A DNA stretch of 64,000 nt, taken from the NCBI GenBank assembly GCA_964016885.1, contig OZ024755.1, positions 29,698,001 through 29,762,000 of the forward strand. Direction: 5' to 3'. The first letter of the stretch is position 1, and each line of letters begins with the position of its first letter. The stretch is from Eledone cirrhosa (taxonomy: Eukaryota). The notes under the pieces are model-generated. The model was not told the DNA's origin and made no database searches. It worked only from the letters and a program-made list of their open reading frames with translations. Made by a program: the position numbers and the translations under genes. This document shows, in pieces, positions 11,101 through 60,065 of this stretch.

Positions 11101-11427
11101 AATGTGGATAATAATAAATATTACCCAATCTCAGGTATGAAAATAGCTCAGGTATGTAAAATACTAAGTATACTACAGAGACGAAATACAATATAAATGA
11201 CAAACATTTATATTATATTATTTATATTATATTATATTATATATATATATATAAATATATATATAAAAATATATAAATATATATAAATATAAATATATAA
11301 ATATATATATATAAATATATATATATAAATATAAATATATAAATATATATATATAAATATAAATATATAAATATATATATATATAAATATATAAATATAA
11401 ATATATATAAATATATATATATAAATA

Positions 11428-11900
11428 TACAATATTAAATAAATGGAAAACTATATTTATAAAACCATATCTATTTCATTATATATATTTCGGGGATATC
11501 ATATTAACAATATGCTATGCCTTCATCAGACAAAATACAATATAAACAGTTTTATAGATAAATATATTCGACATACCGTAATAAACATCAACTTCATTTG
11601 AAGAGGTTTACGCTAGCAGACTGCTAGCGTAAACCTCTCCAAATGAAGTTGATGTTTATTACGGTATGTCGAATATATTTATCTATAAAACTGTTTATAT
11701 TGTATTTTGTCTGATGAAGGCATAGCATATTGTTAATATGATATCCCCGAAATATATATAATGAAATAGATATGGTTTTATAAATATAGTTTTCCATTTA
11801 TTTAATATTGTAAATATACTCCAAATATTTGTCGAGTGCTTTTATATCAGTTATAAATATTTACTAGTTGTAACCCAACAATTTTAAATATAACTTTACA
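11428..11900 (+). mobile_element. PLE pLTR palindrome (192-bp arms centred on 11620, unpaired tail 11813-11900) with a hammerhead in each arm
   Basis: 11428-11619 is the reverse complement of 11621-11812 (1 mismatch seen). Flanked by AT arrays. Confidence 0.88.
11703..11768 (+). ncRNA. Type-I hammerhead ribozyme (mirror copy at 11472-11537 on minus strand)
   Basis: TATTTTGT-CTGATGA-stem II (aggcatagcatatt gtt aatatgatatcccc)-GAAA-tatata-TA|ATGAAATA; stem I 8 bp including G-U; palindromic stem III. Confidence 0.8.
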
Positions 11901-17476: not shown

Positions 17477-17512
17477 TCTTCTGATGAAAGACTACCATCC
17501 GAAACGTTAAGA
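17477..17512 (+). ncRNA. Minimal hammerhead motif with decayed stem II in a PLE 3' remnant (~17411-17600)
   Basis: TCTT-CTGATGA-aagactaccatcc-GAAA-CG-TT|AAGA. Confidence 0.6.
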
Positions 17513-17611
17513 TTCTCTTCCTGCTATTTCAATCGTTAATCTAATATATTCCTCCCATATACTGTACCGACTGTGTTGTTATTTCTGTTTACATTTTACA
17601 TATATAGGTAT

Positions 17612-17810
17612 GAGTAGGACCCCGACGGCTGAGCTCAAGCCGTTTCGACGTCTAATTCTGGACTAAGTCATTTAGTCCAGAATTAGCCGTCGAAACGGCT
17701 TGAGCTCAGCCGTCGGGATCCTACTCGTTCCTATTACCCACTCTACTACCCTAAGTATTGAGTACTTTGGTGCGTTATGGTCCACCTGGTTCCTTACCAC
17801 ATTTCCTCCG

Positions 17811-17813
<3 letters not shown>
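17612..17813 (+). mobile_element. PLE pLTR palindrome, family A (arms 17612-17726 centred on 17669, tail to 17813)
   Basis: Inverted arms with 2 mismatches; tail nearly identical to 1088-1170; GAAACGGC..GCCGTC half-hammerhead. Confidence 0.85.
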
Positions 17814-17858
<45 letters not shown>

Positions 17859-17863
<5 letters not shown>

Positions 17864-18106
17864 GTAAGTTTCTACACAAAACGAAGGTTATAGAGAAAAT
17901 TGAGGTTGGTAATGGCACATGGAATATATAAGAGACAGAATACTTTTTTGTGAAAAAACATATAATTTTATAAGGTAAGGAAAGAATAAAGGGTATAAAA
18001 AAAATACCCTTTATTCTTTCCTTACCTTATAAAATTATATGTTTTTTCACAAAAAAGTATTCTGTCTCATATATTCCATGTGCCATTACCAACCACAATT
18101 TTCTCT
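17859..18106 (-). mobile_element. PLE pLTR palindrome, family C (arms 17892-17996/18004-18106, tail 17859-17891)
   Basis: ~105-bp inverted arms around an A7 loop; homologous to 30024-30135. Confidence 0.85.
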
Positions 18107-18113
18107 CTCTCTT

Positions 18114-18207
<94 letters not shown>

Positions 18208-30023: not shown

Positions 30024-30500
30024 AGAGAAAATTGAGGTTGGTAATGGCACATGGAATATATAAGAGACAGAATACTTTCTTGTGAAAAAACATATAATGT
30101 TATAAGGTAAGGAAATAATAAAGTGTATAAAAAATGACCGGTTTCGATGGGACTGCAAAAGCCATCTTTTCAAATGTTGATTAATATTAAGAAAAATTAA
30201 TAATAAGAAGAGTTAAAATGTGAGATTTGAAAATTCAAGTATAAAATTCATTGTGGGATTTCACAGTAGTTTTCATCTTGGTAGCAGCTCGTTGACTGTT
30301 GGGTGCCTTTCTGGTAGTGAATGAGAAGTTATTTGGGGGTGTGGGTTATTTTATAAAGGTCAAATTTAACAATGGCCAGATGGCCAGCTGCTGGTCAGTG
30401 AGGGGGTGGAAGCAATATACATACATATATCTTCCTGTGGTAGGTAGGAGAGGGGAGATTGATAGAAAGGGATTTAGTGCACTTACACCTATATATGCAC
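30024..30500 (-). mobile_element. PLE pLTR, family C, tail-less copy with decayed hammerhead at 30131-30178
   Basis: Minus strand: aacat-TTGAAAA-GATGG(11 nt)CCATC-GAAA-CCGG-TC|atttt; 30024-30135 matches 17892-18005. Right boundary approximate. Confidence 0.75.
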
Positions 30501-31034: not shown

Positions 31035-31323
31035 AGTAATAATAATAAATTTGAAGACTAAAATCCAAAGAGGGCTCGATAAGGATAAATATATATCAAA
31101 TATATAAGAACCGTAGAGCAAATATTTATTAAATAACAGATTAAAGTTTAAGCAAAGAATCGCTGCTTTCACCCTTAACGGGATCTTCTGAAACAGAAGA
31201 TCCCGTTAAGGGTGAAAGCAGCGATTCTTTGCTTAAACTTTAATCTGTTATTTAATAAATATTTGCTCTACGGTTCTTATATATTTGATATATATTTATC
31301 CTTATCGACCCCTCTTTGGATTT
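31035..31323 (-). mobile_element. PLE pLTR palindrome (130-bp arms centred on 31192, tail 31035-31060) with hammerhead-like core at the centre
   Basis: 31061-31190 is the reverse complement of 31194-31323 (1 mismatch); the arm begins CAGAAGA-tccc-gttaa-gggt-GAAA. Confidence 0.85.
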
Positions 31324-32142
31324 AATACATACATACATACATACATACATACATACATACATACATACATACATACATACATACATACATACATACATAC
31401 ATACAGAGAGAGAGAGACGGGGAAGTGAGAAAGAGGGAGAGAGTGAACCCACCCAGTAACACGATTTGTCATTCGTGTATCCGATTCTTAGTTCTAAAGG
31501 TGATGTATGTCTAATCTAGCAGACATCTTTTAGTAACAGACAAACGCATGCCCGGTACACTTCTAACATTAATCAGATTATGGCCGTGTAATATATTATA
31601 TACTGGGAGTATAATTACTGTCTAAGAAATACTTTCTCCTGATGCTATTGCTCATTAAATATCAGCAGTTTATTCCCCGAAGATAGAGTGTTAGGACATG
31701 ACACTTATTTCGATTCAAAGCATCTGCGTTTTACTAGATACATATATTTTATTACAAAAACTTAATCAAAATTCGGATAAGGTAATCAATTTTTAATTTA
31801 GAAAACAAAATTAATTTCTTCATTATGTTTTATTAGAATCCATTGACGTTCTTACACTTGAAGTGTACATATTTTCATCGGGTGTATGTTTGTGGCTCAA
31901 CAGTCATTTCTTTTCTAGTTGTGTTTGTATTTTTTTACATTATTTTGAGATTATTTCACTTTAGCTGATCTCCTAATTCTAAATGCTACTGATTGTGGAA
32001 ATTCGAGGAAATGTGTAACGAACACAATGTGTATTCAAGAAGACAGCTTCAAGACAGCAAATAAAGATTAGAATCCGGGGAAATTGATGGCGGTCTGTAT
32101 CGGCAAAATATCATTTAGTAAACTAACGTACCCACACCGTAA

Positions 32143-39169: not shown

Positions 39170-39343
39170 TAACGAAGGAATTGGACCATAACGCACCAGA
39201 GTACTCAATACTTAGGGTAGTAGAGTGGGTAATAGGAAAAAGTATGACCCCGACGATCAGAGCTCAAGCCGTTTCAACGGCTGTTTCTGGACTAGCGGTC
39301 AAAACGACTTGAGCTCTACCGTCGGGGTCAAACTTTTTCCTAT
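39170..39343 (-). mobile_element. PLE pLTR palindrome, family A, older copy (arms ~39232-39343, tail 39170-39231)
   Basis: Reverse-oriented homologue of 995-1170 with several arm mismatches; flanked by (TA)n. Confidence 0.82.
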
Positions 39344-39875
39344 ATATATAAGAGAATGTGTTAAGATTAATTAAAGTTGAAGAATAAACATTTAACTGCT
39401 CTTATATATCCTAAATATGTACACATATGATCAATATTATGAAATATTTCTCTACACGAATGTACTGATAACTCTGAGTTTTCATCTAAGGATTTACGTT
39501 TGTTTTCATAGGTAAAGTATTGAAGATATTCGATAATGTCAACACCAGTATGTGACGGTCACTTTATCTTATCGACCTCTCGTAGATAAAAGGTTATGGT
39601 GATCTCGACAGTATTTGAAAAACGTTCACATTATTTATATTTCAGATCTTTCAAACTACAAGATCCACTTAGATCGTGACAACGAAAACAACTGATGAAT
39701 TACAGAATGCAACAAGATAATTATCTAATTAGTGCTTTGTCAGATCACTCCTCGAACATCCCTCTTAAATCTGCTATGAATTCCCTGTGTAATTATTATC
39801 ATTTCGTGTTATTGCTAAGATTTACCTTATTCTTCAAATTATTCTAACAATAAGTAGTTTGCAAATCAAGAATTG

Positions 39876-56246: not shown

Positions 56247-56658
56247 GAGGAAGTTATAGTTCACTTGAAGCATTGTGTAATGAGGTATAAACGTTTGTAT
56301 TTGTAAAGCCAAAACAATGCAGGTATGCATATAGAATATAAATGCAAATGCAAAAGATACTGTTGACAATTAGTCTTTTACCTTAAATTTATTTAAATAT
56401 CCTTAATTTTCGAGATAATATCTCTTCTTCGGAGGGAAGTAAAGTTGTTAAACCACCGTTCTAAATAGCTTGACTTGGCAAGTTATTTAGAACACTGGTT
56501 TAACAACTTTACTTCCCTCCGAAGAAGAGATATTATCTCGAAAATTAAGGATATTTAAATAAATTTAAGGTAAAAGACTAATTGTCAACAGTATCTTTTG
56601 CATTTGCATTTATATTCTATATGCATACCTGCATTGTTTTAGCTTCACAAATACAAAC
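56246..56658 (-). mobile_element. PLE pLTR palindrome (~180-bp arms 56293-56658, 6-nt loop 56473-56478, tail 56246-56292) with decayed hammerhead in both arms
   Basis: Arms are reverse complements with a few mismatches; tccct-CCGAAGA-a-GAGAT(att)ATCTC-GAAA-at-ta-agga. Confidence 0.85.
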
Positions 56659-58681: not shown

Positions 58682-58688
<7 letters not shown>

Positions 58689-58982
58689 TGTAATAAACAA
58701 CATAAGTTAATTATTTCATTTACCAGTGGTTTCTTGAAAGCAAACAAAATGTGCCTTCAATCATCAGAATGAAAAAATCCTGGTGTATTTATTGTCAATA
58801 AATACACCAGGATTTTTTCATTCTGATGATTGAAGGCAAATTTTGTTTGCTTTCAAGAAACCACTGGTAAATGAAATAATTATCTTATGTTGTTTATTAC
58901 ATAACTATTAAGCTCTGTAACCTACATAGAGCACTCTCTTTTTCTGGACTTTTCCTTCCGACTGAATTACTTCATTCACACA
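58682..58982 (+). mobile_element. PLE pLTR palindrome (113-bp arms centred on 58795, tail 58909-58982) with intact hammerheads
   Basis: 58682-58794 is the reverse complement of 58796-58908 (2 mismatches); flanked by (TA)n. Confidence 0.9.
58816..58876 (+). ncRNA. Intact type-I hammerhead ribozyme (mirror copy at 58714-58774 on minus strand)
   Basis: TTTCATT-CTGATGA-TTGAAGGCAAA(ttttg)TTTGCTTTCAA-GAAA-CCAcTGG-TA|AATGAAA. Confidence 0.92.
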
Positions 58983-59810: not shown

Positions 59811-60065
59811 GTGAGAAAAACCACAGACCCTCCATCGTAACTCTACTTTTGAAAAGCAGAAGAACTGCGAAACCGGTAAAGGAACCAAATAAATATATAT
59901 ATTTTTTTTAAAAATAAGACTCCAGTTGCATTTTCGATTTCATCTTTTTTTCTTTATACTTCCACTCGTGTAGGACACCTCGGTTATTTTTCATTTTTGT
60001 AAAAAAAACCTCACTTTCTAATATATAAATATATATATGCAACCCCGTTCTTCCCCCAACCCTTA

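Follow-up and report, generated by a model that had tools for sequence, protein, structure and literature searches.

The palindrome at 17859–18106 in a 64,000-nt window of the Eledone cirrhosa genome (G000:C15:29698001-29762000; genome, 3.0 Gb) raises the question of whether its turn marks the 5´ end of a retrotransposon RNA cut by its own hammerhead ribozyme, and how its second arm was made. The palindrome is composed of two Penelope-like retrotransposon 3´ ends placed head-to-head, one tailed and one tailless. The left flank of the target is a (TA)n microsatellite (17812–17858), and the family copies sit within TA repeats, with TA-repeat microsatellite flanks. It is followed on the minus strand by 33 of the ~36 nt of the Penelope 'tail' (17859–17891), which was recognized by its shared sequence and would be the start of the tailed cDNA; the same tail is present in 58 of 100 unselected arms and also lies 5´ of the coding region in the full-length copy L085. 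The tailed arm (17892–18005, minus strand), a pLTR segment downstream of the hammerhead, reads in the window as GGGTAT, eight A (17997–18004) and T (18005), and then continues as ACCC..., its own reverse complement. The inverted arms (17926–17996 and 18004–18074) are 99% complementary, and 3 of 83 aligned positions differ between the two arms of the palindrome. The tailless arm (18006–18106, plus strand) differs from the long arm by one substitution and a deletion of 2 nt, and its end is the second reverse-transcription start site. The right flank (18107–18205) consists of extra CT repeats and then TA and GT repeats; a CT/AG extension is a typical feature of tailless arms. The insertion has as its target another palindrome-bearing repeat family that ends in TA (17604–17810; also at 991–1167 and 39182–39351).

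At the turn, the two arms overlap by an AT microhomology (18004–18005). T18005 is the last base of the long arm that matches the family and is equivalent to position 30135 of a paralogue in the window, the base with which the predicted 3´ cleavage product begins. Owing to the AT overlap, the turn may lie 0–2 nt earlier, and the run of eight A exceeds the family's six by 2 nt; with these two features, the palindrome considered alone is imprecise. A preliminary description had read the arm as GGGTAT-A8-T followed by its reverse complement, had read an antisense GAAA-CCGG-UC|A in the paralogue, and had placed a turn via a 2-nt AT match at the predicted hammerhead cut. Re-reading of the sequence bears out all of these, within the positional uncertainty given above.

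Element family and predicted hammerhead

Three long copies (L215, L085 and L105) contain an open frame of 777 amino acids that encodes a reverse transcriptase (RT; Pfam RVT_1, E 4e-7) and, C-terminally, a GIY-YIG endonuclease (E 7e-7), both above the cut-off. With both domains in a single frame, the element is an EN+ Penelope-like element (PLE). A C-x4-C-xx-C linker lies 5´ of the endonuclease, and passages of PMC8557442 name a CX2-5CxxC linker between RT and EN as a Neptune/Nematis feature; by the linker only, the element may be given this clade name. L085 contains, in order, an inverted tailless arm, an upstream pLTR with hammerhead and tail, the coding region, the 3´ UTR, a second hammerhead, the pLTR, the tail and a TA repeat, and reaches ~220 nt upstream of the predicted cut. 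Its long region from the upstream pLTR to the RT frame (L085 1600-2790) starts with an ATG ~170 nt after the cut. The pLTRs occur in direct and inverted orientation with a tail of 30–40 nt at one end, in L085 and in 26 of 26 unselected inverted pairs, in each of which a tailed arm is paired with a tailless one. This inverted-pLTR layout is already known, and because the family is organized in this way, the short palindrome is a very short case of an inverted-pLTR insertion.

The paralogue at 30024 reads GTGTAT, six A (30129–30134), T (30135) and then GACCGGTTTC, the minus-strand GAAA-CCGG-UC|A. Its tailless arm downstream of the cut (30024–30135, minus strand) adjoins a predicted minimal type I hammerhead, read from sequence (30136–30179, minus strand), with the predicted cut between 30136 and 30135. 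The hammerhead comprises the core UUGAAAA (U3–A9, 30173–30167), a 5-bp stem II (GAUGG/CCAUC, 30166–30162 with 30150–30146), GAAA (30145–30142), the palindromic CCGG and UC, so the YUGANRA...GAAA...UH arrangement with a 3–8 pair, a stem II and a palindromic helix III is present. The 3–8 pair is U3-A8 instead of C3-G8, and the sequence of stem II varies yet still pairs in two related families. Helix I has two contiguous pairs only, or four of six when two U-C mismatches are allowed; a stable helix I would comprise 4–6 bp. According to excerpts of PMC4209133, the U3-A8 variant with a palindromic helix III is reported for minimal PLE hammerheads, and a 2-bp helix I has a precedent in D. virilis. 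In the fold prediction, the hammerhead stems have +1.4 kcal/mol and a competing fold -8.3 kcal/mol (z -0.3). In the latter, the cut site is hidden by pairing with the 5´ strand of stem II; inefficient cleavage would be expected from such a fold. An Rfam scan of the window returned no hammerhead family among the best 150 of 245 rows, which are hairpin and microsatellite noise.

Further CUGANGA...GAAA motifs are located at 17481, 47147, 13824 (minus strand), 11529/11711 and 58767/58823, two of them within palindromes. The other long palindromes of the window (11425–11815, 31059–31325, 56311–56640 and 58682–58908) are probably similar head-to-head insertions.

Arm ends at the predicted cut

To count arms across the genome, we used a 31-nt anchor that ends just before the site and has 2153 matches, each an arm; all counts require an exact anchor of 27–35 nt and thus miss older copies. 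For a given base, arms were collected whose match to the anchor is followed by departure from the family at that base, and their flanks were read. At the predicted cut, 52 arms diverge, 35 of which end there (31 loci; 1.6% of the 2153 arms); the others are 14 point changes, two arms of one locus with a 9-nt insertion and one deletion start. One base upstream, 22 arms diverge, with four end events (one of which is a 13-copy array), one deletion and five point changes, and one base downstream, 7 of 51 arms end, and A8-T is the form of three of these, the palindrome at 17859–18106 among them. At control AT|G sites, 2 of 15 arms end at +13, 1 of 8 at +40 and 8 of 24 (seven events) at a site ~80 nt toward the tail. 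The peak of ends at the UC| site for which the preliminary description had called is therefore present across the family: 31 loci, versus 7, 2 and 1 at the matched sites, which is 9-fold the control mean and 4.4-fold the highest control (p 1e-4 versus the highest).

The flanks of these loci differ, and no pair exceeds ~97% identity over more than 330 nt among the matches listed; L318/L319 contributed a single count, and so did the tandem array of 13 copies in the +1 control. The partners at the 31 cut junctions are 20 inverted arms, 8 microsatellites and 3 others, and the end is constant. Arms with a run of five A number 37; the 30 examined contain seven ends, all followed by T, which lie outside the count of 31. 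Two further copies have their irregularity at the same base: L121 (G000:C1:98726074) has the 9-nt insertion precisely at the cut in both arms, and L197 (G000:C1336:79944) has its terminal 18 nt re-copied, with two ends at the cut. It is possible that RT jumped across, or realigned at, the template end in both. A 455-bp piece of the element is present in 13 tandem copies in two opposed blocks at L249-L261 (G000:C4:321065944-321071503).

The ends at the cut are a minor class of insertions, ~2% of arms. Among the first 100 unselected arms on C1, 96 read through the cut, none ends at it and 31 end within the 290 nt upstream, which corresponds to ~2.3 arms per base genome-wide; four arms (two loci) turn at another hot spot, one created by microhomology, at a 6-bp palindrome 50 nt upstream (+50). 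We rejected the predicted cut as the normal 5´ end of the mRNA, since L143 alone among the 31 loci represents an upstream pLTR and L085 extends past the cut. In a second family (window 59869), 30 of 53 examined arms end at the cut (136 in all) and 7 of 72 at a CpG control site (527 in all), giving ~77 ends (range 58–95) versus 51 (21–100), so the peak is not separable from the control in this family. A comparison of three contig sets of one sample yielded neither joints nor ends.

Origin of the second arm

In the preliminary description, the second arm was made by a single cDNA that ran off the cleaved template, folded back on itself and primed its own copy. Penelope palindromes were earlier ascribed to self-priming in passages of PMC3846280, and the palindrome at 17859–18106, along with L137, L144, L148, L150, L187, L192 and L195, fits a loop of at least 4 nt and a match of 1–2 nt; in these eight copies, the tailed arm is the one that reaches the site. 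Subfamily variants are usually common to both arms, as fold-back would have it, which indicates that the arms are mostly copied from one RNA or a sister RNA. However, a 2-nt subfamily variant distinguishes the two arms in L149 and in L171, and the 2-nt deletion in the tailless arm of 17859–18106 recurs in five other arms. The centres of the 20 site-ending palindromes also speak against fold-back in part: six are A6T6 without a loop, one is A6T5 and two are blunt T-end joins, while seven are hairpin-compatible and four have a partner that starts further back. Of the 26 inverted pairs, 7 have a tailless arm that clearly outreaches the tailed one and contains sequence absent from it. Because 9 of 20 centres have no or almost no loop and the tailless arm can exceed the tailed one, fold-back of one cDNA is insufficient for these pairs, and a second RNA-primed cDNA is needed.

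The position of the outer end also bears on the choice. The second RT start, with slippage repeats of CT/AG, is always where the second arm ends; tailless arms start with AG repeats and also occur alone, as in L193, where the arm runs straight into U6. Fold-back of a single cDNA is therefore an unlikely source of the second arm, and two cDNAs joined by microhomology are the better fit. For the palindrome at 17859–18106, fold-back may have closed the centre, but even then the end point of its second arm requires a second primed cDNA. In unequal site-ending pairs, the tailed arm reaches the site in 12 cases versus 4 for the tailless arm (p 0.08), and later deletion at the palindrome centres could account for the asymmetry in some pairs.

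U6 junctions, mechanism and related systems

The predicted cut is also a junction with small nuclear RNA. In L193, U6 snRNA (Rfam) contributes its 3´ 60 nt, which end in five T and are joined to the first base of the predicted cleavage product. The U6 3´ end has 44 dispersed matches at 43 loci, every one of which was read; a further 28 matches belong to one tandem array of 28 U6 genes at ~1.8-kb spacing (G000:C19:31780681-31840330), one stretch of which was read. U6 is joined at the base after GAAA–stem III–UH in 11 of the 43 dispersed loci, in seven hammerhead-bearing families (L193; L267 and L273; L285 and L287; L275, L290 and L298; L277; L300; L308). The junctions were assigned by comparison with those fetched loci that hold non-chimeric copies; L290 was assigned by 10 matching bases, and for the families of L267 and L277 the evidence is the 3´ half of the core only. 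All 11 cut-joined copies have T5 without added bases, versus 14 of 32 at the other loci (p 0.001). Of the remaining dispersed U6 copies, some are unassigned and the others adjoin different repeats, with the junction position varying. In L284, U6 lies at the centre of another repeat pair without assignment to a cut, and ~20 copies among L266-L307 adjoin short interspersed repeats (5´ parts) or other retroelements (3´ ends) at varied junction positions, with 4–10 T. In the second family, pieces of 18S and 28S rRNA are joined at the predicted cut (L380, L483), the 18S match scoring below the gathering threshold.

Two observations in the window touch on these chimeras. In the repeat family of 17604–17810, where GAAA is present together with a long stem III and UC, the U6 of L267 and L273 is joined exactly after the UC. 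Hammerhead-like ends of three more families are located at 59869, 60411, 60722 and 61773, and U6 is joined at the predicted cuts of these families at other places in the genome.

A hammerhead cleavage product carries a 5´-OH, and ligation of U6 to such an end would account for the junction at the predicted cut. According to passages of PMC6789731, mature U6 terminates in five U and a cyclic phosphate, and 5´-OH RNA is the only RNA to which RtcB joins it. The junction has the form expected of such a ligation, free of microhomology and of extra bases, in the 11 loci, and their DNA would fit a ligase or a template jump of RT equally well; a jump from the cut end to U6 looks alike and also requires an RNA end at the cut.

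The ends might arise without cleavage if RT fell off after the run of six U, where the rU:dA hybrid is weak, or at the ribozyme structure, with an AT/TA match setting the apparent break. The cut sits right behind such a run, stem I is weak, most partners start with T, and an end at the last A is indistinguishable from one at the T in most single junctions. However, in the U6 chimeras the position of the junction is exact to the base, and such chimeras are also present at the cuts of six other families, which have no U-run; far fewer ends are found at other AT|G sites; and the insertion in L121 and the re-copied segment in L197 are also at the site, all of which makes this route improbable. For the palindrome at 17859–18106 itself, a chance truncation, or a longer palindrome that afterwards lost sequence at its centre, is a very remote explanation, since, against the background level of ends, the atypical A8 and the 2-nt ambiguity that would allow it, ends at the site are 4- to 13-fold above background, so most are not chance, and A8-T occurs in three ending versus two read-through arms (p 6e-5).

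Because the hammerhead core is present, the arm ends peak at the cut and U6 is joined there, the 5´ end of the RNA was likely made by cleavage, as the preliminary description had proposed, and these genomic junctions make an in vivo cleavage footprint at the predicted cut likely. The coupling of cleavage to integration stands in a narrower form: the footprint is likely, but it is not general, as 96 of 100 unselected arms read through and none ends there.

The palindrome thus probably arose from a self-cut Penelope template by run-off, with a second cDNA on the other strand and an AT join. The element protein would nick both strands of the TA repeat, and two cDNAs, tailed and tailless, would start at two sites ~35 nt apart. 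On the minority of templates that are cleaved, both would stop at or before the 5´-OH end, and their 3´ ends would anneal by 0–2 nt, followed by fill-in. At 17859–18106, the Penelope-like RNA would have been cut by its own hammerhead, and run-off of the RT at the cut end would likely have followed; the second arm would likely be a second cDNA off the other target strand, joined via the 2-nt AT match. For some cleaved RNAs, attachment to U6 would have come before copying, with an RtcB-type ligase as the probable agent.

Several features are common to known systems. As far as excerpts of PMC8557442 and PMC3846280 describe them, EN+ PLEs with the Neptune/Nematis-type linker share the RT with C-terminal GIY-YIG, the Cys linker, the pLTR hammerhead, the 30–40 nt tail at one end, head-to-head inversions and microsatellite targets; in these excerpts, hammerhead function is unclear or self-priming is proposed, and neither a mapping of copy ends to the cut nor an argument for two cDNAs from arm asymmetry is given. 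The minimal PLE hammerheads in passages of Cervera and de la Pena 2014 (PMC4209133) share type I, a palindromic helix III (dimer expected), U3-A8 and a short helix I. The in vitro work on Poseidon from Anolis, in the portions of Frangieh et al. 2024 (PMC11167929) used here, describes a protein that cuts and extends both target strands from two adjacent RT start sites on the RNA that define the tail, which the two-cDNA model matches. In the same portions, the hammerhead is protein-assisted, uncut RNA is the main template and substrate, and no RNA-seq reads end at the cut, whereas in the Eledone family 1–2% of insertions form a class that ends there. The U6/LINE-1 chimeras made via RtcB (passages of Moldovan et al. 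2019, PMC6789731) share the U-tract U6 3´ end, the need for a 5´-OH and later retrotransposition, but have variable positions and 4–8 T instead of one ribozyme-defined base per family and T5 throughout. R2 with its HDV-like ribozyme (excerpts of PMC3774820) offers a comparable genomic 5´-junction readout of a ribozyme cut; there, cleavage makes the normal 5´ end, whereas here it is a minor class and L085 extends ~220 nt upstream of the cut.

In a limited literature search, no paper described PLE hammerhead cuts as sites of arm ends or U6 junctions, and the word Penelope is absent from PMC11838501. For the minimal hammerheads of animal Penelope elements, papers give low in vitro activity, an unclear function and no RNA ends at the site. 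On balance, we favour a broader reading, in which minimal Penelope hammerheads, including those with a 2-bp helix I and a U3-A8 core, cut in the germ line at the predicted base, the 5´-OH product is ligated to U6 or rRNA and retrotransposed, U6 chimeras form a genome-wide map of cuts, and inverted pLTRs are two cDNAs and not self-priming. Fixed insertions keep rare germ-line events that RNA-seq misses, and U6 junctions offer a route to verifying the cut sites of unusual ribozymes from an assembly only. The arm asymmetry leads to a testable two-cDNA model for Penelope inversions, and in vivo cutting by minimal animal Penelope hammerheads is likely, at the predicted base and on a small share of templates.
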